Positions 3,194 through 16,251 of a DNA stretch of 18,657 nucleotides are shown here, piece by piece; the first letter of the stretch is position 1, and each line of letters starts with the position of its first letter. Both the position numbers and the translations under genes were made by a program. The DNA comes from Armatimonadota bacterium. GTDB lineage: Bacteria > Armatimonadota > Fimbriimonadia > Fimbriimonadales > GBS-DC. A model generated the notes under the pieces. The model was given only the letters and a program-made list of their open reading frames with translations. It did no database searches and was not told where the DNA came from. The stretch is from positions 1-18,657 of the forward strand of contig JBBIJY010000036.1 in NCBI GenBank assembly GCA_037445735.1, read 5' to 3'.

Positions 3194-6136
3194 TCAACAG
3201 CCATTACCAAAATTATACAAAACAATCAATAGATCGTTATCATCCACGATACCATCGTTGTTTAGATCGGCAAGTCCGTCAGAACGACCGAAATTGAACA
3301 GAACGGACAGGAGATCCGCGTCATTCACACAGCCGTCCAGATTCACATCCCCATCAGTGCGACCATAGGGGTTCGGATACAAAACACTGCGTTCGTACGT
3401 GTTGAACAGAATCCACCGATCATCCCCAGAGGCATATACCTTCCGGTTAGACCAAGGCGGCACTGGCGACTGGCTTGTATCGAAAGACGCTATCGTGCGC
3501 ATAGACGGGAATGCTATCAGGTGGTATTGATAGCCAATCGAGTCACTTTGTGCAACCACAGCAAAACGCCCATCAAAATAGTCAACTGTGTACTGTCGCG
3601 GAAAGGAACTCACCAGATTGCCTGTCTGTACATCGTAGACCTGATAGCCGCTCAACAGATAACGCGAGTCACGGGAGTATCTGGCGGAGGGTAGATAGAG
3701 CGTTCGGCTCCAGAGTGGCTGATTGGTTCGCGTGTCATACATCCAGCAGACGCCCGAAGCAAGCTCGATGAGGGCGTAATTTCCATCGGGCGAGAACAAC
3801 ACGCCTCGAATGTCTGACAGCCCTGTGTCGCTGGCGCTCCAGAGAGTCTCTCCTGTAATCCAGTTGTACAGCTGTCTGTTGCGTACCAACAGGTCAAACC
3901 GATTCTCGATAAGGGAGGTATTAGGTGCATACTCTCCTGCTACGAACCGTAGTGTCGGCCATTCATAGGCGTACCAGTAGGGTTGGTTGCTGTAATGACC
4001 CAAGGTCAAAAGGTAGCCCCCCCCAACAACGCCGTTGCCAGCGCCGGGCCCACTCCCAAACTCATGCACAAAAATTGCAATTCGCTGGTAGTCCCACGAC
4101 TCGGAGTTTGCATGCCAGAGAACCCCTCCTATATCCCTTGTGAAAATAACCTGGTCGGCGTCAGCAAATAGAGCCGCGTATGCAGGCACCGAAATGGCAC
4201 TGATTCCTTGCGAAGGGGCACTGGCAGGATGATACACAAGCTCCGATCGTCCAAGTAGGTTTGCAAAAAGGGTAATCCAGCCATTAGGGATACGCCAGAA
4301 AGCACTATTGTACGGGTTTTGCAGAGGAACCCTGCGCACAACGCGAGCAGTTTCTGCATCAATGATGAACACAGTTCCCAAAGATAACACATGAAACTCG
4401 TTGTTGGCAGCGTATGAGTCTAAAACTGTAGGAATACGCTGTGTACCAGCAACAGGGTCATATTGATAATAGTTTTCTATAAGCAACGCATTTAATTGTT
4501 CCATCGTAGGGTATCGAAAGACCAGAAGGGTACACCAGTTTGAACTATCTACTCTGTTGACGGCAATGTAGTTGTTGTCCGGAGTCACAGCCGCGTTTGT
4601 GAACTGACCACCGCTACGATATAGCAAATGGGTTTCCAGCGATTCAATATCAATGCTTATTAATTCAGCACCATTAAAAATCGTGCGAAGGGCAAGAATT
4701 TTGTTATCTGGGGTGATACAAACCAGCTTCAATCCAAAGGCTACAACCTGATGCTGCCATGCCTCCGTACCATCGCTGTGTATTCGGTATAGCCTCGTTC
4801 CTATATTCAAAATTAGCCCACTGCCATCAGGCAGAAAGAGGGCTGTTGGGTGTGAAGAAGATGTAGAGTAGGTGCGCGTCCAGAGCTCTTGACCTGTGTT
4901 CAAATCGATGAAGTGGAAGCGTCCATTGCTTGAGAGTGTTAGCGCTCTCTGGGCATCGTCGGAAATCCCAATAGGTATCATAGGGGTGCTGACAGGCAGT
5001 TGCCGTACCTCAACAAAATCGCTCAGACGGTACAAAGACAGCATCCAGCGGAGACTGGAATGATACTTCGGCACAATCATCCATTCTCGATTGGGCGATA
5101 GCAAGGCATCCCCGAAAAACCGTCGTTCTTGGGAGATGATGTCAGGGTAAGTCGTTGCGCTAAGCCCTTCAATGTCGACCATATGCACCCCATATTGGTG
5201 CGTCGCCACAAGGCGTTGAGTGCCCGGTTGGATCACAATTCTTCTTGCAAAGAATCCCGTCGCGATACTGCGTTCCAGAATCCCATCGGTAAAAACCCCG
5301 ATTCCGTAACCCGCACTGGCAAGTAAAGTCTGGTCAGACAGCCACGCAAGCGCTATGCTGTACGCAGCTCCACCACCCTGAAGGAGCTGTGTCGCTCCGC
5401 TCTGCAAATCCAGCATCAATACGCGGCCTGCATTGACAGCCCGACGATCCCAAGCATAAATCGCCATATAGCGTCCCGACGGAGAGGTAGACAAATCTAT
5501 GGGCAGAGTGTCTGAATCCCCAAACGCGAACTGATTCTCTACGATTCCATCAGCCAGGCGGATCACAAATGCCTGAGGCAAGCCAAAATCTTGCGGAGCA
5601 ACTATAACCACAGCACGCTGTTCGTCAGGAGTAAAACAGACCTTGGGATATATTAATATAGAGTTATAGTTTACATACACATTTTCATATAAATAAGTAT
5701 ATGATCTTCCATCGAACAGATTGATAAAGTTGGCATATCTGCTTGTTTGACTACCACCTCCCAGCACAAGCCAGTTTCCTGATGGCGAAAATGCTATAAA
5801 TCTAAGAGCGGATTGAATCTGATAAATAAGGCGTGATGTATCGATTTCATAAACCGCATATCCTCCTCCACCCTGAACAACAACCACGGAGCCGTTGGTT
5901 GCCACGAAAGACGATGCGTTAAAGTTTTCGGGTATCAAAGTGCGGACAACCTTTCTCTGGAGCATATCGTAAACCGCCAGAAACTGGTTACGCATCAATA
6001 CCAGATGGCGTCCGTCCGGCTGAAATGCCATTTCGGTGGGAACGAAGTGAAGTAAGATTGTGCGCACAGGGATGCGGTCGCTGGCAACCCCTGTATACAC
6101 AACCATCACTGCTAAAAGCACGCTGACTATGCGCAT
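3194..6136 (-). CDS. Secreted 980-aa WD40/YVTN-like multi-beta-propeller protein with C-terminal dockerin-like Ca-binding repeat
   Basis: Hydrophobic signal peptide; many blade motifs (AFQPDGRHL, AFSPSGNWL, FTPDEQRA, STSPSGRYM, VTPDNNYI, FSPDGNYAL); C-terminal GDVNLDGCVNDADLLSVLFNFG...DLNNDGIVDDNDLLIVLYNFG; SD GGAGG. Confidence 0.85.
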   Translation of the reverse strand: MRIVSVLLAVMVVYTGVASDRIPVRTILLHFVPTEMAFQPDGRHLVLMRNQFLAVYDMLQRKVVRTLIPENFNASSFVATNGSVVVVQGGGGYAVYEIDTSRLIYQIQSALRFIAFSPSGNWLVLGGGSQTSRYANFINLFDGRSYTYLYENVYVNYNSILIYPKVCFTPDEQRAVVIVAPQDFGLPQAFVIRLADGIVENQFAFGDSDTLPIDLSTSPSGRYMAIYAWDRRAVNAGRVLMLDLQSGATQLLQGGGAAYSIALAWLSDQTLLASAGYGIGVFTDGILERSIATGFFARRIVIQPGTQRLVATHQYGVHMVDIEGLSATTYPDIISQERRFFGDALLSPNREWMIVPKYHSSLRWMLSLYRLSDFVEVRQLPVSTPMIPIGISDDAQRALTLSSNGRFHFIDLNTGQELWTRTYSTSSSHPTALFLPDGSGLILNIGTRLYRIHSDGTEAWQHQVVAFGLKLVCITPDNKILALRTIFNGAELISIDIESLETHLLYRSGGQFTNAAVTPDNNYIAVNRVDSSNWCTLLVFRYPTMEQLNALLIENYYQYDPVAGTQRIPTVLDSYAANNEFHVLSLGTVFIIDAETARVVRRVPLQNPYNSAFWRIPNGWITLFANLLGRSELVYHPASAPSQGISAISVPAYAALFADADQVIFTRDIGGVLWHANSESWDYQRIAIFVHEFGSGPGAGNGVVGGGYLLTLGHYSNQPYWYAYEWPTLRFVAGEYAPNTSLIENRFDLLVRNRQLYNWITGETLWSASDTGLSDIRGVLFSPDGNYALIELASGVCWMYDTRTNQPLWSRTLYLPSARYSRDSRYLLSGYQVYDVQTGNLVSSFPRQYTVDYFDGRFAVVAQSDSIGYQYHLIAFPSMRTIASFDTSQSPVPPWSNRKVYASGDDRWILFNTYERSVLYPNPYGRTDGDVNLDGCVNDADLLSVLFNFGRSDGLADLNNDGIVDDNDLLIVLYNFGNGC

Positions 6137-6243: not shown

Positions 6244-7557
6244 CTATCGCCAGCGGCGGTATTCGGCGGCGACGCGCTGCTGCACATCGCGCAGCGCCTG
6301 TTCGGGCGCCTTGTTGCCGCTGATGATGAAGTCCTGCGCGGTTGCAAGTTCGTGCAGGTAGAGCGTGGCGACAGGCGTGGTGGGGAAGAAGCGGGCGTTG
6401 GGGCTGTCCACCAGGTCCAGAAACTTCGCATAGCCGCGCTTCCAGATTTCATCGGGCGAGCGGGGCGTGCGCAGGCGCGGGTTGCGCAGCACACACCGAA
6501 TGTTGGGGATGCCGTGCATCGTCTCGGCGAACAGCACCTGCGCCTCCTCGCTCTGCATCCAGACAAAAAAGTGCCACGCCTCGCGCGGATGCTTCGATTC
6601 ACGCGGGATGCAGAACATGTTCTGCCCGATCCAGGTGGGGCGCTGCAGATGTGGCTTATCCGCGGGATAGGGGATGGGCGCCACATCGTAGGGCACATGG
6701 GGCGCGTACTTCTGGAACCAGTAGGGATTCCACTGCCCGTTGATCATCATGGCGATTTTGCCGAGAAAGAAGGGGTTGTTTGTGCCCTGTTCGTTGCCGA
6801 AGCCGGCGGTGAACGCCTGCACGCGCCGCCCGCCGCCCATCGCCTCGATCAGCGCCCGATAATAGCGTGCCGCCTCCAGATTCACGGGATGGTCGGCGGT
6901 GATGGCGCCCGTTTGCGGGTCCACAAACTGTCCACCGAACGCGCCGATAATGAAGGTGAGTTCAGGCGGGCGCATGCCCAGCACACGAATCTCGCCCGTC
7001 GAATCGCGCAGGGTCAGCTGGCGGGCGTACGCCAGCATCTCTTCTAAAGTGCGTGGCGGACGATGGGGCGGCAAGCCTGCCCGGCGAAACAGCGACGGGT
7101 TCCAGAAGAGCGCCTGCGCATCCAGCAGATAGGGCATCGAGTAGAGCCGACCCTGATAGCGTCCCTGCTCCAGCGCGGCGGGGATAAAGTCCGATTGGCG
7201 CAGCCCCGATTCGCGGAACCACGCATCCAGAGGCAGCAGCGCGTTATTGGCAGCGAGCGGTGCCAGATAGCCTGGCTCACGCAGGGTGAAAAAGTCGGGC
7301 GGTGCGCCCGCCACAATCGCGCGGATGATTTTGGTGTCCTCGACGGCTCCCAGATTCTCAAGGTAGAGGGGCGGGTTCAGGCGCGGCGCCACATGGCGGT
7401 TGAAATAGTCCACCACGCCCTGAAACACGCGCTCCTCGTCGCCGCTCCACATGCTCCACACCCGCAGGATGGTGCGCCCGTCGCGCTTCTCGATGCGCCC
7501 TGCGCACCCGCTCAGCACCATCGCCAGCCCAACACCCGCCTGCCAGCCGATTCGCAT
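6244..7557 (-). CDS. Carbohydrate ABC transporter substrate-binding lipoprotein (family 1, CUT1 type)
   Basis: Lipobox VLSG|C; AIVAGAPPD, YQGRLYSMP, LFWNPSLFRRAGL, PPRTLEE, FFLGKIAMMINGQW, SKHPREAWHF. Confidence 0.92.
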   Translation of the reverse strand: MRIGWQAGVGLAMVLSGCAGRIEKRDGRTILRVWSMWSGDEERVFQGVVDYFNRHVAPRLNPPLYLENLGAVEDTKIIRAIVAGAPPDFFTLREPGYLAPLAANNALLPLDAWFRESGLRQSDFIPAALEQGRYQGRLYSMPYLLDAQALFWNPSLFRRAGLPPHRPPRTLEEMLAYARQLTLRDSTGEIRVLGMRPPELTFIIGAFGGQFVDPQTGAITADHPVNLEAARYYRALIEAMGGGRRVQAFTAGFGNEQGTNNPFFLGKIAMMINGQWNPYWFQKYAPHVPYDVAPIPYPADKPHLQRPTWIGQNMFCIPRESKHPREAWHFFVWMQSEEAQVLFAETMHGIPNIRCVLRNPRLRTPRSPDEIWKRGYAKFLDLVDSPNARFFPTTPVATLYLHELATAQDFIISGNKAPEQALRDVQQRVAAEYRRWR

Positions 7558-7561
7558 CCAT

Positions 7562-9736
7562 TTACCTCACGATTGTTTGCAGAAACGCAAGGCGACTCCC
7601 TTCAGAAATAACAATCATCGTGCGACCGTTAATGCGCTCGGTAGCCCATGCTCCCTCCGCTTCAAGCCCGAAAAAGCGTTCCAGAGCAGGTCTAACAAGG
7701 TTATAGGCAATTTCACGATGATTTTGAATGGTTGAATTAATATCACTAATAAACTGTTGTAATTTTCCAACCAGCCAACCCCAGGCAATAGGCCCACCGC
7801 GTTGGAGTTGCGCGATGAAGTCAGGATCAGTACGCAAGCGTTCTAATGCTGCTTCCTGCACATGTGTGAGATAGTCCAGCTCGGCATGCACTGGGGTTTG
7901 CAGATCGACGCCGTCGGCGTCGTCGGCAGGCGAGTAAGCGAGAGAAACATCGCGGTAGAAAGCATTTCGGAGCTGGCTGGCATAGGTGGGCACTGCGGCG
8001 CGATTATAGTGCGGATCGGCGGGTTGGTAGCGCGCCTCGAAAGAGAGGATGCGCAACGGTAGCGGATAGGGCTTCCCTCCAGCGCTTGACCAGAAAATGC
8101 AATGTCCGGGAATTGGCTCGTTAAGCAGGGTAGCCAGTAAATCGCTGCTGAAATGGGCATTGGCGCGCTGCACCGCTTTCAGGTCGCTTTCCGAAAGCAG
8201 ATGGAAGACAAACCAGACATCGCCCTGGCTCAGCAGTTCGGGCGGGATACTTCCGGGTTGCTGGGTAATCATCACGGCGCCCAGGTCATATTTGCGCCCC
8301 TCCTTGACCCAGGTGACGAAGGGCGCGTGGGCGGTGCTGCGCTCTTCACTCAATACGCTCTGCGCCTCTTCCAGCACAGCGATCACAGGGATGGTCATAG
8401 CGTCGCGCTGAGTGAATTCTTCCTGGTTGCGCTCAAAGAGGTATTGCAGGATAAGCGCTGCCAGGATGCGTGCCGCTTCACCGGCAAGGCGGGAAAGGTC
8501 TATCACGCAGATTTTGCCCTCCTTGAGCGACCGCTCCACCATGTCCAGCAGACGGCTGTTGGGGTTGTGCAGCAGGCGCACGATGGTGAAAAGGTTGCTG
8601 CGGGCGGCGTTCGCTTCCACCTGGCTCAGGCTACCCTCCTCGCTGCTCATGCCCAGCAGATCGCTAACCTGCTGCAACGGCGCGTTCATGCCGTTCTGGT
8701 AGATGCAGTCCACCAGCGCCTTCCAGCGGTCAGCAGGTAGCCCCCTGAGCTTGCGCACATTCTGCTGATCCTGCTTTTCAGGTGAGAGCGCGATGCTCAC
8801 CACCATCCCGGCGGGCAGTCGGCGAATATCCAGTTTGGTGTCCCCCGCCACAAATGAGCCATAGTAAGCCGACGGAGGCGTCCGATCGGTGAACACCACC
8901 AGCTGATCCTGAAGGTGGGGCACATCGCATAGACCAGGGCGCCCCTTGTCATCTGGCCAGAAATATTCGCCGTCACGGTCGAAAATAAGGGTTCCAACCG
9001 ATTCCATTCGTCCACCCCGTTTCTGAATCAGGGGGGTGGTACGATACAGCTCCGAGAAGAGCAATTTAACGAGGTTCGATTTACCGAAGCCCGATTGAGC
9101 AAACACGAAGGTGCGCCGTGCAACCAAGTTGTTCACGGGAAACCGCACCAGCATTGTGGGCTGGAGCAGACGCATCCAGGGCTGGACCTGCAAGTCGGGA
9201 TGATGCTGATGATCGTCCTGGAGCGCCCAGATGAACTCGCCCATAGCCAGGAAGCCGAGCGCAGCGCCTGCGGAATCGCTATCGCCGTGTCCCACGATGG
9301 AGCGCAATACACTGGGGGTGGGCAGAGCCACAGGGCTGCCTACATGGGGCAACCGTCGATGGGAGGGCACAAAGATGAATGATCCCTGCCCCTCTTGCCG
9401 CAGCACACCCAGCACCCGAATATTGACCCGAAACTTGAGATATTGATCCCGCATATCCTCTGGGATGTGGCGTCGCTCGATCACCTGCCGCAACAGGTAG
9501 TCCTCCCCTTCCGTGTCGACCAGCCGTCCCTCCGAACGCAGCGAGGTGATCCGACCCAGCACCGCCTCATTATGGTCCGTCAGCTGAATCAGCAGGAACT
9601 GACCATGCATCGGCTGAATATGATAATCGGGTCGATAAGGCAGGATAAGGTCGGCGTGGAACTCCAGACCACCTTCGCTGAAACCCCGAAAGATACCCAC
9701 AATGCGATCTTCACGAATTAACGCCTCATCGCCCAT
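7562..9736 (-). CDS. HerA/FtsK-superfamily ATPase (DUF87/HerA-like DNA translocase)
   Basis: N-terminal HAS-barrel-like beta region; Walker A variant FVFAQSGFGKSN; IFDRDGEY; Walker B IAVLEEAQ; KEGRKYDLG (Arg finger); ITQQP; SD AGGAGG; overlaps the nurA stop by 11 nt. Confidence 0.9.
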   Translation of the reverse strand: MGDEALIREDRIVGIFRGFSEGGLEFHADLILPYRPDYHIQPMHGQFLLIQLTDHNEAVLGRITSLRSEGRLVDTEGEDYLLRQVIERRHIPEDMRDQYLKFRVNIRVLGVLRQEGQGSFIFVPSHRRLPHVGSPVALPTPSVLRSIVGHGDSDSAGAALGFLAMGEFIWALQDDHQHHPDLQVQPWMRLLQPTMLVRFPVNNLVARRTFVFAQSGFGKSNLVKLLFSELYRTTPLIQKRGGRMESVGTLIFDRDGEYFWPDDKGRPGLCDVPHLQDQLVVFTDRTPPSAYYGSFVAGDTKLDIRRLPAGMVVSIALSPEKQDQQNVRKLRGLPADRWKALVDCIYQNGMNAPLQQVSDLLGMSSEEGSLSQVEANAARSNLFTIVRLLHNPNSRLLDMVERSLKEGKICVIDLSRLAGEAARILAALILQYLFERNQEEFTQRDAMTIPVIAVLEEAQSVLSEERSTAHAPFVTWVKEGRKYDLGAVMITQQPGSIPPELLSQGDVWFVFHLLSESDLKAVQRANAHFSSDLLATLLNEPIPGHCIFWSSAGGKPYPLPLRILSFEARYQPADPHYNRAAVPTYASQLRNAFYRDVSLAYSPADDADGVDLQTPVHAELDYLTHVQEAALERLRTDPDFIAQLQRGGPIAWGWLVGKLQQFISDINSTIQNHREIAYNLVRPALERFFGLEAEGAWATERINGRTMIVISEGSRLAFLQTIVR

Positions 9737-10877
9737 AATCTATCTTCCTCCTGCGAGCGCCCAGCATTCGAAAAGCTTCGAGGGCTGCCACCTCTTCTCG
9801 ATCCATCACGGCGCAGATAGCACGCAGCACGCACTGTTGCAGCATGTCGCCTTCCAGCCCCGACAGGTTCGCCTGTTCATGCGCTTTCTGGAGGCAAAGA
9901 GGGTAGTAAGGCTGGGGAAAGCCAACCTGCGCATCAGCCAGCAGATAACTGAACACTTCATCGACCTCGTTGCGCTGCAGATGATAATACCACACATCCA
10001 CGGGGTAGATGGGGTCATAGCGCCGGGGACCGAACTTTGCCAGGTAGAGGGCACCAACCACACGGTAGCGGGTGTCCTCAAAGGTTTCGCCTTCTGGCGA
10101 GCGTCCGTACTGCGTCCAGCGATAGACCTGCTGCTCCATCGCTGGTGGGATTCGCACATAGCGGGCGCCTTGCTGCACCAGCACACCCTCAATCACCAGC
10201 GCAAGATGATATCGATCCAGCACTTTGCTGCGCTTGGCAACACCGACCACAAAGATGCGCCGCCGCTCCTGACGCTCATGCCGCTCCACCGCCTCCCGAA
10301 TCCGATCCCACATGCAAGCAAAAAGGTCGCCGTCAAAGATGAGGCTGCGCAAAAACCCGTCACGCACCAGTAGCGTATCCGTTGCAAATTGATTTCGCGT
10401 GATATATTTGTATAAAACTGCCCATTCTGCCAGGTCACGATAGACCTGCCACCAGCGTGGACGGGCTGCTGCTGGTTCATGGGAACCATCTGGACAGGGG
10501 ATGAAACGGCTCAGCTCCCACAGGTGGCGCACACCCAGGTCCTGCATCAGTATCCCCAGAGGGGTCTGCTGCTCGAACTGCCATTCGTCCAGCTGGCGAA
10601 TATCCATATAGGGCGAAAGCACATCCAGAAAGTGGGGTTTACCATATGAATCAACCACGCGTACAGGCACCAGCAGATAGGGATCAAACTGGATTACATT
10701 TTCGCCTGCGTCGGTTGCCATGAGGGAGATAGCCGTTGTGGTGCGGGGATGAATAGGGCGCACGCTGTCACGCAGGGATCGCACCTGCTGGCGAAGAGCG
10801 TCCAGGCGTGAACGGTCTGCCTCTGCCAGCCGACGAATTGCCTGCGCCAGCACCTGTTGCTGTTCTGCATCCAGCAT
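9726..10877 (-). CDS. NurA-family nuclease (RNase H-like fold)
   Basis: NurA-type motifs MATDAGEN, LLVRDGFLRS, VVGVAKRSK, GFPQPYYPLCLQKAHEQANL; directly upstream of and coupled to the HerA-like ATPase. Confidence 0.82.
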   Translation of the reverse strand: MLDAEQQQVLAQAIRRLAEADRSRLDALRQQVRSLRDSVRPIHPRTTTAISLMATDAGENVIQFDPYLLVPVRVVDSYGKPHFLDVLSPYMDIRQLDEWQFEQQTPLGILMQDLGVRHLWELSRFIPCPDGSHEPAAARPRWWQVYRDLAEWAVLYKYITRNQFATDTLLVRDGFLRSLIFDGDLFACMWDRIREAVERHERQERRRIFVVGVAKRSKVLDRYHLALVIEGVLVQQGARYVRIPPAMEQQVYRWTQYGRSPEGETFEDTRYRVVGALYLAKFGPRRYDPIYPVDVWYYHLQRNEVDEVFSYLLADAQVGFPQPYYPLCLQKAHEQANLSGLEGDMLQQCVLRAICAVMDREEVAALEAFRMLGARRRKIDYGR

Positions 10878-10894
10878 CGAACCGCCCCATCACA

Positions 10895-10937
10895 ATTATA
10901 CCATATGTTTTCAGTCGCCGGGCTGGCACTCTGAAAA
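10895..10937 (-). promoter_or_regulatory. Extended -10 promoter of nurA-herA with an inverted repeat upstream
   Basis: Minus strand TGgTATAAT (10903-10895); inverted repeat TTTTCAG (10908-10914) / CTGAAAA (10931-10937) spans the -35 region. Confidence 0.65.
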
Positions 10938-10956
10938 TGCTCAGCATGGACCAGCC

Positions 10957-12051
10957 CTATACGCCAGCATTCGCTACCGATTCGCGGACCACAAGCTCCA
11001 GAGGCAGTCGTTCCTGAAACGGTTCGGGCGGTTGACCGCGGATGAGCTGGAGCATTTTGCGCACGGCGCGGACACCCATCTCCTCCAGCGGCTGGCGGAA
11101 GGTGGTCAGCGGTGGCACGGTGAAGGCGGCGGAGGGTGGGTCATCAAAGCCCAGCACCGACAGCTGTTGCGGCACTGCCACGCCCGATCCATGCGCCGTC
11201 TGCAAAGCCGCCAGCGCCAGATAATAACCGCCTGCAAAAACGGCGGTGGGTCCATTCGGCAGGCGAATCAGTGTGCTGAGTCCCTCGCGCACGGCGTCGT
11301 CGAACTCGTCGGCGTAGGGCGTGATGAAGGTCCAGATGTGCTCTTTGGGGATGCCCGCCTCTTGCAGGGCGTCGCGGAAGCCGCGCCAGCGATCGCGCGA
11401 ATTGAAAGTTTCCAGCGCGGCGAACAGCCCCACAAAGCGTTGATGCCCGTGCTTGAGCAGGTAGCTCACACCGTCCCGCGCTGCGGCGTAGTTATCGGTG
11501 TCCACAAAAGGCAGTGTCCAGTTGTCCGCGCTGGCGCCCACAACCACCACGGGCACGCCCCGCGCGTAGAGCTGCTCCAGCCACGCGATATGCTCGGCGG
11601 TGGGCGCAATCGCGAGAATGCCCACCAGCTCCGCAGAGCGCAGCTCGCGCTCCACCTGATCGAACTGATAATCGTGCCATATCGTGCGGATGCCCGACGC
11701 CGCCAGCTCGGTGTGGATGCTGCGGTGCAGCGCGCCGAAATAGAAATCGGCGGTCTGGCGCGTCGCCGTGCCGATGCCCAGCACCAGCAGGGTGGTGGCA
11801 GCTTGCAGCAGATGCAGGGGCAGCTCACGGGCAACGATGGTGCCCACACGCCGCTTGCGAATCAGCACGCCCTCCCGCGCCAGCCACTGCAACGCCCGAC
11901 TCACCGTCAACGGGCTAACTTTGAGCTGGGCTGCCAGATCGCGCTCTGGCGGCAACACATCGCCCGGGCTCCAGCGCCCACACGCAATCTGGCGCTCCAC
12001 CCACTGCTTCACCTGCACATAACGCGGCAGCTCCTCGTTCAGTTTCAACAC
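10957..12051 (-). CDS. GntR-family wHTH / LacI-type sugar-binding domain hybrid transcriptional regulator (AraR-like architecture)
   Basis: N-terminal PRYVQVK...GDVLPPERDLAAQLKVSPLTVSRAL..L..EG (GntR); C-terminal VDTDNY, GHQR, RWRGFRDAL, VPQQLSVLGFDD, PPLTTFRQP, LVVRES (LacI); GTG start with GGAGAGG SD. Confidence 0.93.
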   Translation of the reverse strand: MLKLNEELPRYVQVKQWVERQIACGRWSPGDVLPPERDLAAQLKVSPLTVSRALQWLAREGVLIRKRRVGTIVARELPLHLLQAATTLLVLGIGTATRQTADFYFGALHRSIHTELAASGIRTIWHDYQFDQVERELRSAELVGILAIAPTAEHIAWLEQLYARGVPVVVVGASADNWTLPFVDTDNYAAARDGVSYLLKHGHQRFVGLFAALETFNSRDRWRGFRDALQEAGIPKEHIWTFITPYADEFDDAVREGLSTLIRLPNGPTAVFAGGYYLALAALQTAHGSGVAVPQQLSVLGFDDPPSAAFTVPPLTTFRQPLEEMGVRAVRKMLQLIRGQPPEPFQERLPLELVVRESVANAGV

Positions 12052-12064
12052 CGCCGTCCTCTCC

Positions 12065-12104
12065 GTTATACCCGTCCGTAAAACAGGGTTATGAGGTTAT
12101 TATA
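12065..12104 (-). promoter_or_regulatory. Promoter and candidate autoregulatory operator of the regulator
   Basis: Minus-strand TATAAT at 12104-12099, then ATAACCCTGTTTTACGGACGGGTATAAC (imperfect ACCC...GGGT dyad) before the SD. Confidence 0.5.
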
Positions 12105-12287
12105 CTCGCTCTGACGCCCTCCTCTTTACAGAGCCGATTCTGCCGCCCGATGGCGGGGAAATGCCCCCGAATCTTGAAAATGGCTGTCCGCTTTTTGACC
12201 CTTTTTGAGTCATTAAAGGGTGGATGCTCCCACCAGCAGAGACGCCATAGAAGGGGTTGTCCAGAAAACTATCAGGAGGTATGTGCT

Positions 12288-14634: not shown

Positions 14635-15131
14635 TTCTCGTAGCGCAAAGATGCCGCGCGTGCCCGATAGATTGCCGCGCGCAGGGACGGCTCCTCTATC
14701 ACAGCCACACTGCGCTCTAACGCTGCCCGCTCTTCAGGGGTGAGCTCGATATGCTCTGGGGAAATCTCACTCATGGAACCCTCACCCTCCAGCCCCCCTC
14801 TCCCCGATCCTGGAGAGAGGGGGACAAAATCGGGTAGTGGATTGCGCACCACGAACCGAATCTCCCTGAAGGCATCGATACCGCATTCGGCATTAAGCCG
14901 CTCCAGCAGGGTTTCCTTCTGGAACTGCAGTTCCTGCGCCCAGGCGCTGCTTTTGACCGCGACCCAGAGCGTGCCGCCCTCCATGCGCAGCGGTCGCGCC
15001 GCCTGCGCAACGGCTTCACCCGCTATCTGCGACCATGACAGCAGCGCACGGCGCACCCGAAACTCGCGCTCGATGCCCAGCTGCTGCAACACGCTCCAGA
15101 GCCATCTGCCCACAGGCTCAAAGCCGCTCAC
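14544..15131 (-). CDS. dciA: DUF721/DciA-family protein (replicative helicase loading factor) with C-terminal Cys4 zinc ribbon
   Basis: WSQIAGEAVAQAARP..MEGGTLWVAVKSSAWAQELQFQKETLLERLN...IRF; CERC...CFIC; typical position after recF; GTG 15131 preceded by GGAGGG. Confidence 0.88.
   Translation of the reverse strand: MSGFEPVGRWLWSVLQQLGIEREFRVRRALLSWSQIAGEAVAQAARPLRMEGGTLWVAVKSSAWAQELQFQKETLLERLNAECGIDAFREIRFVVRNPLPDFVPLSPGSGRGGLEGEGSMSEISPEHIELTPEERAALERSVAVIEEPSLRAAIYRARAASLRYEKWRLAMGWRRCERCGEWHTESARLCFICRE
14779..14823 (-). repeat. REP-like palindromic element embedded in-frame in dciA
   Basis: Minus strand CCCCCTCTCTCC-AGGATC-GGGGAGAGGGGG-GCTGGAGGGTGAGGG, translated as PLSPGSGRGGLEGEG; same architecture as 2146-2210. 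Confidence 0.65.
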
Positions 15132-16251
15132 GATAAACCCTCCCATTCTCGATGCGGAACAACACCGCCTCTTTCAGCCCTATCTCGTCCAGCGCGCCCA
15201 GATCGGTGCAGGTGAGAAAGGTCTGCACGCGCGGCTGAAGGAACTGCACCAGCCGCATGCGCCGCTCCGGGTCCAGATCCGAAAACACATCATCCAGCAA
15301 GACGATGGGGCTTTCTTCGAGCCGGCTCTCCAGCAAAGGCACTTCAGCAAGGCGCAAACTGAGCGCACAGGTGCGCTGCTGACCCTGCGAGGCGAACAGG
15401 CGCGCGTCATGCCCGTCGATGAGCATCAGAAAATCGTCGCGATGGGGTCCCACCAGCGTCATCCCGCGCCGAATCTCCTCCGATTCAACCTCCTGAAGGG
15501 ACACCTGCAGAGCATACGCCCAATCCTGCTCGCTGAAGCCGGTCCCATACCCGTTTGCAGGCGGCAAGCCGGGCTGATAGAGGAGCTGGAAGACCTCTTT
15601 GCCGCCTGTGAGCGTGGTGTGAACGGGCGTGATGAATGTTTGCAGTTGCTCAAGGAAGCGGCGGCGCTCGTCCATCAGGCGCGCGCCATATTTGATGAGC
15701 TGCTGGCTCCATTCAGGCAGGCTCTCCAGCGTGGCGTGCCCCTCCAGATGCATGCGCAGTAGCGTGTTGCGCTGTTCCAGACAGCGACGATACTGCGCCA
15801 GCGAATAGAGATAGCGATGGCTGATGAGGCTCAGCTCGCTGTCCAGAAAGCGGCGGCGCTCCGCAGGCTCGCCTCGAATCAGCAGCAAATCCTGCGCGGT
15901 GAAACAGACCATCTTCAATCGCCCGATCAGCTCGCTCTGGCGCGACACAGGCTGCTCGTTCAGCAACACCGTGCGTTTGCCCGACAGGGGAGTGCGGATC
16001 ACCAGCTCATCTTCGATCTCATGCCGCAAAAAGCGTACCGAAAGAAAGGCTTCCGATTCGCCCCAGCGTACCAGATCGCTTTCCCGAACGGGACGCAACG
16101 GGCGAAAGGTGCTGGCATAGTAAAGGGCTTCCAGCAAATTGGTCTTGCCCTGCGCGTTGGCGCCCACCAGCACATTCAGCCCCGCACCCGGCTCAATCTG
16201 CGCCTGTTCATAGTTCCGAAAGTTTCTTATACGCAGCTGACGCACCCGCAT
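15118..16251 (-). CDS. recF: DNA replication and repair protein RecF
   Basis: MRVRQLRIRNFRNY, Walker A GANAQGKTN, GEPAERRRFLD, GPHRDD, ASQGQQR, LLDDVFSDLD; the ORF extends to a GTG at 16263. Confidence 0.97.
   Translation of the reverse strand: MRVRQLRIRNFRNYEQAQIEPGAGLNVLVGANAQGKTNLLEALYYASTFRPLRPVRESDLVRWGESEAFLSVRFLRHEIEDELVIRTPLSGKRTVLLNEQPVSRQSELIGRLKMVCFTAQDLLLIRGEPAERRRFLDSELSLISHRYLYSLAQYRRCLEQRNTLLRMHLEGHATLESLPEWSQQLIKYGARLMDERRRFLEQLQTFITPVHTTLTGGKEVFQLLYQPGLPPANGYGTGFSEQDWAYALQVSLQEVESEEIRRGMTLVGPHRDDFLMLIDGHDARLFASQGQQRTCALSLRLAEVPLLESRLEESPIVLLDDVFSDLDPERRMRLVQFLQPRVQTFLTCTDLGALDEIGLKEAVLFRIENGRVYRERL

Follow-up and report, generated by a model that had tools for sequence, protein, structure and literature searches.

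A NurA-HerA gene pair in a Fimbriimonadales genome, probably a horizontally acquired derivative of a restriction-like cassette that lost its methylase

An 18,657-nt stretch of an Armatimonadota genome of the order Fimbriimonadales (contig JBBIJY010000036.1; hereafter the window) carries two overlapping genes, which encode a NurA-fold nuclease (P0001) and a HerA-type ATPase (P0002). The pair belongs to a family in which a DNA methylase gene usually stands beside the two genes. In the studied lineage the methylase is missing, and the pair is mobile, is kept under purifying selection and retains its family motifs. On balance, we favour the view that it is a horizontally acquired, methylase-less derivative of a methyltransferase-NurA-HerA restriction-like cassette, most likely acting as an ATP-driven degrader of incoming linear DNA.

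Relatives of the pair were collected by scanning species-representative genomes, which yielded 265 stretches encoding them; 80 loci were kept, and the family counts given below refer to these 80. The family spans many bacterial phyla and some archaea. It is nevertheless rare, as 1.84 billion representatives contained 504 clusters of it at 50% identity. The window open reading frames (ORFs) scored 513.5 bits (nuclease) and 1045.8 bits (ATPase) against the family hidden Markov models (HMMs), and each is single-copy in the window's genome (G000). Clustering of neighbouring genes, followed by their location with family HMMs, identified a third conserved gene, designated X, adjoining the pair in 70 loci, where it lies upstream in 59 cases, downstream in the same orientation in 9 and downstream and convergent in 2. 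All nine members of X that were checked matched PF01555 (DNA methylase), and the gene product carries DPFCGRGTT and TSPPY motifs. X was absent from four loci whose two flanks each exceed 1.3 kb (L034, L039, L045 and L095), and five loci with a shorter flank on at least one side were left unscored (L018, L019, L022, L027 and L077); one of these, L027, shows no X over 5.8 kb on the flank that bears it in its clade. Locus L067 is a degraded remnant. An earlier note, made from the window sequence alone, had described a self-contained two-gene module, but the family norm is three genes, and the two-gene form is a derived, methylase-less one. In three Nostocales loci without X, a D12/Dam-type methylase adjoins the pair instead (L034 13340-14221 (-), L039 13353-14240 (-) and L077 8873-9682 (+)), which is a non-homologous replacement of the modification gene. 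This exchange speaks for a motor that operates together with a methylase and can evidently change its methylase partner. Two further observations were made among the family loci. The herA gene of a planctomycetotal locus (L037) lies in two pieces (11107-12123 and 14646-15941) about 2.5 kb apart, probably owing to an insertion. At four unrelated loci (L035, L036, L049 and L084), the three-gene cassette is accompanied by the same two large genes, encoding approximately 990 and 875 aa; the second encodes a type III methylase in L035, and the cassette may thus be repeatedly associated with a type III restriction-modification system.

No X orthologue was found in G000 (99.2% complete), where the best family-HMM score was 59 bits versus 496-581 bits for true members, or in the three other pair-bearing Fimbriimonadales genomes (G012, a single contig, G020 and G024), where the X profile scored at most 45 bits. 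In a quick IQ-TREE phylogeny of the nuclease (LG+G4, 80 rows, L067 left out), the window fell within a five-row clade consisting only of Fimbriimonadales (SH-aLRT 100). This clade was nested in a 12-row clade (SH-aLRT 100), the other assessable members of which carry X downstream of herA. Methylase-bearing sister loci occur, for example, in Moorellaceae and Thermoflexus. A single loss in the Fimbriimonadales lineage is the simplest account. The Allorhizocola locus (L095) represents a second, independent loss. The members of the methylase-less clade share 62-72% protein identity with the window, and every one of the 10 pairwise comparisons in the clade gave a dN/dS of 0.07-0.23 for each of the two genes. 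Saturation of dS affects the deeper pairs; in the three closest pairs (dS 0.6-1.0) the values were 0.07-0.10. The pair is thus kept by purifying selection and is not decaying. The methylase-less lineage of this cassette is a new point.

The mobility proposed in the earlier note was supported, and the pair is accessory. The nuclease was present in four of 41 related genomes and in none of the three other genomes of the same genus (97-98% complete). In one of the latter, G002, the genes for the solute-binding protein and the regulator that flank the cassette in the window (98% and 97% protein identity, respectively) lie 17 bp apart. The comparison by blastn placed the breakpoints at window positions 7557/7558 and 10970/10971, with flanking DNA 93-96% identical to G002, so the intervening stretch is a clean indel. 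At one end, the regulator gene has lost its final four codons to the insert. The herA stop codon TAA sits in the 9-nt string GGTAAATGG, the only junction string common with G002. There were no terminal inverted or direct repeats and no target duplication across the indel beyond chance-level short matches, and no recombinase was found among the window genes. The GC content of the insert was 0.56-0.59 versus 0.61-0.66 in the flanks. The other Fimbriimonadales copies lie in differing, housekeeping contexts, and the nuclease tree mixes phyla, placing Dehalococcoidales beside Coriobacteriaceae and Methylacidiphilum beside Zixiibacteriota. Vertical, syntenic inheritance was not what we observed. The receiving site itself varies within the genus. 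The regulator gene is followed in G003 (L016) by a sigma-70 gene, identified by Pfam, and not by the solute-binding-protein gene, and in G001 (L015) by a 446-aa ORF similar in size to the G003 sigma-70 gene. It follows that rearrangement has occurred within the genus at the very junction into which the cassette went.

The designation of P0001 as NurA-like did not follow from Pfam on the protein itself and was recovered through its relatives and its fold. No Pfam, NCBIfam or PADLOC model matched P0001, with PF09376 (NurA) absent even at E ≤ 1, and a phmmer search of PDB returned no match. Nevertheless, PF09376 was matched at E ≤ 1 by nine of 25 homologues (best 4.3e-7), and a profile built from these 25 sequences had TdpB as its sole significant match in PDB (8.1e-6). 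The AlphaFold model of P0001 (pLDDT 85.6) was placed by Foldseek closest to TdpB (8wfd_G, E 8.7e-12, TM 0.61-0.66) over the whole length (376-380 columns), followed by the NurA proteins of Sulfolobus (TM 0.40/0.46), Thermococcus, Pyrococcus and Deinococcus; five different NurA structures were matched at E ≤ 6e-4. P0001 is thus predicted to adopt the RNase H-like fold of NurA, and it has the two DG motifs, I and II, as well as a C-terminal AH motif. The last of these, LQKAHEQA, agrees with the LxxAHxxxA motif given in a review (PMC13748450). The TDAG string that the earlier note regarded as a deviant motif I is indeed present, but the family consensus at this site is DGG with A or G in the middle position, and P0001 reads DAG.

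The assignment of P0002 to the HerA/DUF87 group was secure, as PF01935 was matched at 2.5e-18 (67.4 bits, cut-off 23.2). Its sequence matches in PDB were TdpA (2.5e-24), Sulfolobus (Sso) HerA (1.2e-12) and DUF4297-HerA (6e-10), with Deinococcus HerA absent at E ≤ 0.01. The structural model (pLDDT 82) gave TdpA as the top Foldseek match (E 8.1e-29, TMt 0.64-0.68), with archaeal HerA and Sir2- or DUF4297-HerA below it and Deinococcus HerA at rank 37. The NCBIfam equivalogs for repair-type HerA scored 65.5 bits (NF040937, cut-off 800) and 46.8 bits (NF040819, cut-off 970), and the anti-phage HerA equivalog scored 56 bits against a cut-off of 800. PADLOC HerA models matched P0002 at approximately 1e-19. 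The strings AQSGFGKS and LEEAQ had been cited, together with TDAG, as atypical motifs that marked a distinct subfamily. All three are present. However, AQSGFGKS fits [AG]xxxxGK[ST] (Sulfolobus HerA has AATGSGKS and TdpA has GKTGFGKS), and the Walker B motif of HerA relatives in PDB is normally EEAH, as opposed to the DEAH taken as canonical in the earlier note (VLEEAH in TdpA, VIEEAH in Sso HerA and LLEEAH in DUF4297-HerA). The ATPase motifs are therefore not atypical; only the exchange of H for Q differs, and it is family-wide. The deviations, being ordinary in the HerA/NurA family, lose their weight as an argument. The distinct subfamily itself was borne out on other grounds, as the nearest solved relatives by sequence and fold are the defence proteins TdpA and TdpB and not repair-type NurA-HerA.

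The long C-terminal extension of the ATPase was likewise confirmed. The alignment of P0002 with TdpA stops at residue 567 of 724, corresponding to TdpA residue 578 of 586. In the model, the extension comprises helices at residues 585-599 and 622-689, a beta hairpin at 697-710 and a helix at 712-723, with a disordered linker at 598-619. It is weakly conserved save for W652 and W697, and is present family-wide (median ATPase length 716 aa). An Atlas search with the C-terminal 150 residues gave no usable match; from the order of the modelled secondary-structure elements, one might guess at a winged-helix-like domain.

Features of the nuclease-ATPase cassette and its insertion site in the window
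Feature	Position	Strand	Basis or remark
NurA-fold nuclease gene, TdpB-like	9726..10877	-	ORF and translation, 383 aa (P0001)
HerA-type ring ATPase gene, TdpA-like	7562..9736	-	ORF, Pfam DUF87, 724 aa (P0002)
Overlap of nuclease and ATPase genes, 11 nt	9726..9736	-	ORF coordinates
Extended -10 box TGGTATAAT	10895..10903	-	Single window match; also precedes the nuclease gene in related loci of Fimbriimonadales
NurA motif I, T55-D56-A57-G58	10704..10715	-	D56 and G58 invariant in 25 homologues; D56 is the candidate catalytic Asp
NurA motif II, R172-D173-G174	10356..10364	-	D173 and G174 invariant in 25 homologues
NurA C-terminal motif LQKAHEQA, residues 329-336	9870..9893	-	L329, Q330, A332, E334 and A336 invariant, H333 in at least 90% (25 homologues)
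Walker A AQSGFGKS, residues 213-220	9077..9100	-	A213, G216, G218, K219 and S220 invariant (28 family members)
Walker B IAVLEEAQ, residues 452-459	8360..8383	-	I452, E456, E457, A458 and Q459 invariant (28 family members)
HerA C-terminal extension, approximately residues 575-724	7565..8014	-	Not in TdpA or Sulfolobus HerA
3413-bp stretch absent from G002	7558..10970	.	blastn of the window against L014 (G002); junction read

The overlap of the two genes reported in the earlier note was confirmed by the ORF coordinates, and translational coupling of nuclease and ATPase is probable. The extended -10 box described there was also present. Its TATAAT element ends 17 nt before the nuclease ATG, and the pattern TGNTATAAT had one match in the whole window where 0.12 were expected. 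At least one match occurred in 23 of 200 shuffles, so this single match is not significant by itself. A TGnTATAAT box was, however, found at the same place in four of five aligned Fimbriimonadales upstream regions (the window, L003, L018 and L027); L003 and L027 are identical across the aligned stretch, and the fifth region, L004, reads TGGTATACT. This recurrence suggests that the cassette has its own extended -10 promoter. No -35 hexamer was found ahead of TGGTATAAT, and for this reason the promoter scanner omitted the box. The interval between box and ATG (10878-10894 (-)) is equally short in the related loci, and from this spacing an mRNA leader of approximately 10 nt is predicted. A search of sequencing runs listed no RNA run, and the one DNA run listed may be the source sample.

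The cassette is flanked by the gene for the solute-binding protein and that for the regulator, which is of the GntR/LacI type. Other genes of the window concern sugar uptake and competence and include recF and rsmG; in line with the earlier note, the neighbour annotation revealed no mre11 or rad50 in the window. A 980-aa WD40/PQQ beta-propeller protein is encoded at 3194-6136 (-), with a GC content of approximately 0.49 versus approximately 0.61 around it, and G002 has a different, shorter stretch (approximately 1.6 kb) at this place. This is a second variable, probably acquired region, 1 kb from the cassette.

The surroundings of the family were scanned with PADLOC (E ≤ 1e-10), covering, at 31 loci with full flanks, the closest two ORFs to either side that encode 100 aa or more. 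These were drawn from 36 eligible loci; four of the five left out (L081, L082, L090, L092 and L097) have close kin among those kept, the exception being L081, whose nearest relative was not kept. Of the 124 flanking proteins, 29 gave matches, spread over 16 of the 31 loci; among these were type III and type II restriction-modification, Septu, DISARM parts, NsnA, a Ppl-like protein and HEC-05. Among 108 control ORFs from eight random G000 regions there were nine matches, mostly generic (Fisher p 0.0023). The enrichment near defence genes anticipated in the earlier note thus holds for the family (29/124 versus 9/108 proteins) but not for the window itself, where two of the 11 neighbours matched and both, recF and rsmG, are housekeeping look-alikes.

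We infer that six HerA subunits would form a ring that pumps double-stranded DNA with the energy of ATP (Walker A K219/S220, Walker B E456/E457), and that a NurA dimer (D56, D173, H333/E334) would dock on this ring and cut the DNA fed into it, resulting in processive degradation. In the parent family, the linked methylase would presumably mark the host DNA, and the motor would spare marked DNA, by analogy with phosphorothioate and TdpAB. In the Fimbriimonadales lineage the methylase was lost and the pair kept. Its targets would most likely be free-ended DNA, such as injected phage genomes and linear incoming DNA, and the circular chromosome would escape for one of two reasons: loading of the ring may require a DNA end, or a resident methylase may provide cover. 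According to PMC3326311, Sulfolobus HerA-NurA digests only free-ended DNA, and circular plasmid is refractory; should the same dependence be valid here, the loss of the methylase would not be lethal.

Several points weigh against this reading. The defence enrichment is no more than indicative, given that its control came from a single other genome and that there are close kin among the 31 loci; moreover, the window copy is not in a defence island. PADLOC has no model that matches the nuclease, and its matches to HerA are generic. A search of plasmids and phages with the nuclease (tblastn) gave no match. The literature search returned no paper that names the methyltransferase-NurA-HerA family or tests it experimentally, and a 2012 review by Aravind touches on NurA and HerA only briefly. 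A block of the motor by methylation is an analogy with TdpABC, and dependence on free ends was shown for the archaeal complex and not for this family. Finally, nucleases of the restriction type are normally toxic once the methylase is gone, and the long retention seen here could therefore mean that the function has changed.

The strongest of the competing accounts, which we nonetheless regard as doubtful, sees the pair as a repair module, domesticated after the methylase was lost for DNA-end resection or double-strand-break repair and feeding RecFOR, as proposed for Deinococcus radiodurans. The NurA-HerA of that organism resects ends, according to PMC9960219. The account would explain why both genes are under purifying selection although the methylase is gone and why the Fimbriimonadales and Allorhizocola cassettes lie among housekeeping genes. 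It also suits the gene content of G000, which has RecJ (496 bits, above cut-off), recF in the window, no AddA above cut-off and SbcD-like matches of 57-60 bits, below cut-off, a combination resembling the RecBCD-less setting of Deinococcus. Yet a core repair function should be inherited vertically, and the patchy distribution of the nuclease, including its absence from the three other, near-complete genomes of the genus and the indel relative to a genome with nearly identical flanks, argues against such a role. The failure of Deinococcus HerA to match P0002 by sequence, its low rank by fold and the low scores of the repair equivalogs point the same way. A less probable account, and to our minds an improbable one, retains restriction-modification but supposes protection in trans, with a resident methylase making the mark that the motor respects and rendering a linked one dispensable. 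The 22 PF01555 matches in G000, 20 of them above the Pfam cut-off, are consistent with this, as is the replacement of the linked methylase by an unrelated D12-type enzyme in Nostocales. The check covered one candidate, a 460-aa enzyme on contig C4 that resembles X more than any other G000 methylase does, and this was rejected as a dedicated partner, being paired with its own XcyI-like endonuclease and having a distribution that does not match that of the cassette. It occurs in eight of the 41 relatives (seven full-length, one fragment) and does not track the cassette; the cassette-bearing G012 lacks it, and G001, G003, G009 and G019 have it without the cassette. The pair on contig C4 (L098 1204-3527 (+)) consists of an m4C/m6A-type methylase gene followed by the XcyI-like restriction endonuclease gene, and the 22 matches make G000 unusually methylase-rich.

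It is quite unlikely, in our judgement, that the pair is a DNA donation motor that processes and exports chromosomal DNA for neighbouring cells to take up (transjugation) in the way that ICETh1 uses its NurA-like protein together with TdtA. The operon order of ICETh1 is that of the window's sister clade, and donation there requires the nuclease as well as the ATPase (PMC5365140). At the window locus, however, an integrase, a tRNA insertion site, direct repeats and a type IIG enzyme are all lacking, TdtA does not have the 150-residue C-terminal extension, and the likeness is one of gene order. Least probable of all, and very unlikely, is a decaying remnant, that is, a partial cassette which shed the methylase as it inserted and is now disappearing. 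In its favour, the indel ends downstream precisely where herA does, at the place occupied by the methylase gene in the sister clade, and the related locus L067 is visibly degraded. Against this, both ORFs are full length with all invariant residues present, and the constraint on the two genes extends across the divergent methylase-less clade.

We offer, tentatively and as a possibility rather than a likelihood, the bolder proposal that this is a restriction-type HerA-NurA motor freed of any modification enzyme, which tells self from non-self by DNA topology, by ends or by its variable C-terminal domain. The methylase has been lost at least twice (Fimbriimonadales and Allorhizocola) and swapped once (Nostocales). 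Should this proposal be correct, the cassette would be a modular immune platform comprising a motor and any mark, or none, and the methylase-less form would provide a RecBCD-like innate barrier in bacteria where no AddA above cut-off was found. A HerA ring with an effector is an emerging theme of bacterial immunity, and TdpAB shows HerA-NurA as the restriction arm of a DNA modification. A lineage that has long kept the motor without the methylase is a natural experiment that makes the sparing of the host chromosome a testable question, with methylation, the need for a free DNA end and the extra C-terminal domain as candidate factors.

Kinship to the repair and defence types was judged by ranked sequence and fold similarity. 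The archaeal HerA-NurA complexes, which act with Mre11-Rad50, and the repair complexes of Deinococcus and Thermus have the same two folds and an architecture of a ring motor and a toroidal nuclease dimer, which would be expected for the window pair as well. They differ in a much weaker similarity of the nuclease (TM 0.33-0.46, Foldseek ranks 3-9), and their HerA proteins rank 7-10 and 37 for P0002. Unlike them, the window pair has no mre11/rad50 linkage, shows a patchy horizontal spread and has a methylase in most of its relatives. Sir2-HerA and DUF4297-HerA (Nezha/Gao_Her) resemble the pair in joining a HerA ring to an effector, but the effector in the window is of the NurA fold, and no Sir2 or DUF4297 lies beside HerA. 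For ICETh1 of Thermus thermophilus, PMC5365140 gives an operon of a NurA-like protein (377 aa), the HerA-like TdtA (568 aa) and a PF01555 methylase (410 aa). Compared by this description and not by sequence, it resembles the window's relatives in the gene order, which is that of the sister clade, and in the location on a mobile element; it differs in being tied to a type IIG enzyme as well as an integrase, in serving DNA donation and in its shorter TdtA. The window genes are members of the methyltransferase-NurA-HerA family, as they are adjacent and co-oriented, score 513 and 1046 bits against its HMMs and, in the case of the nuclease, belong to a clade nested within it; the difference is the methyltransferase, which is missing from the window locus and from G000.

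By sequence and modelled fold, both window proteins are closest to TdpB and TdpA, with the archaeal or Deinococcus repair NurA-HerA more distant. TdpABC of thermophiles was reportedly described by An et al. (Nat Chem Biol, 2025) as a system in which phosphorothioate marks the host DNA and the TdpAB motor spares it; the cryo-EM structures of TdpAB are 8wet/8wfd. The difference from it lies in the low identity of the structural alignments (18% for the nuclease and 23-24% for the ATPase), the extra C-terminal domain of approximately 150 residues on the window HerA and the modification gene. The window locus has none, and no tdpC-like linked gene was found there, the indel 7558-10970 containing two genes only; in the family, the partner is an S-adenosylmethionine (SAM)-type methyltransferase (PF01555, SPPY) and not a phosphorothioation enzyme. 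PMC12914056 presents TdpABC as a phosphorothioate-based, restriction-modification-like system. The likeness lies in the combination of a HerA-type hexameric motor with a NurA-fold nuclease, the top matches for both window proteins, and in the linked modifying enzyme of the wider family, which seems to be a base-methylation counterpart of TdpAB.

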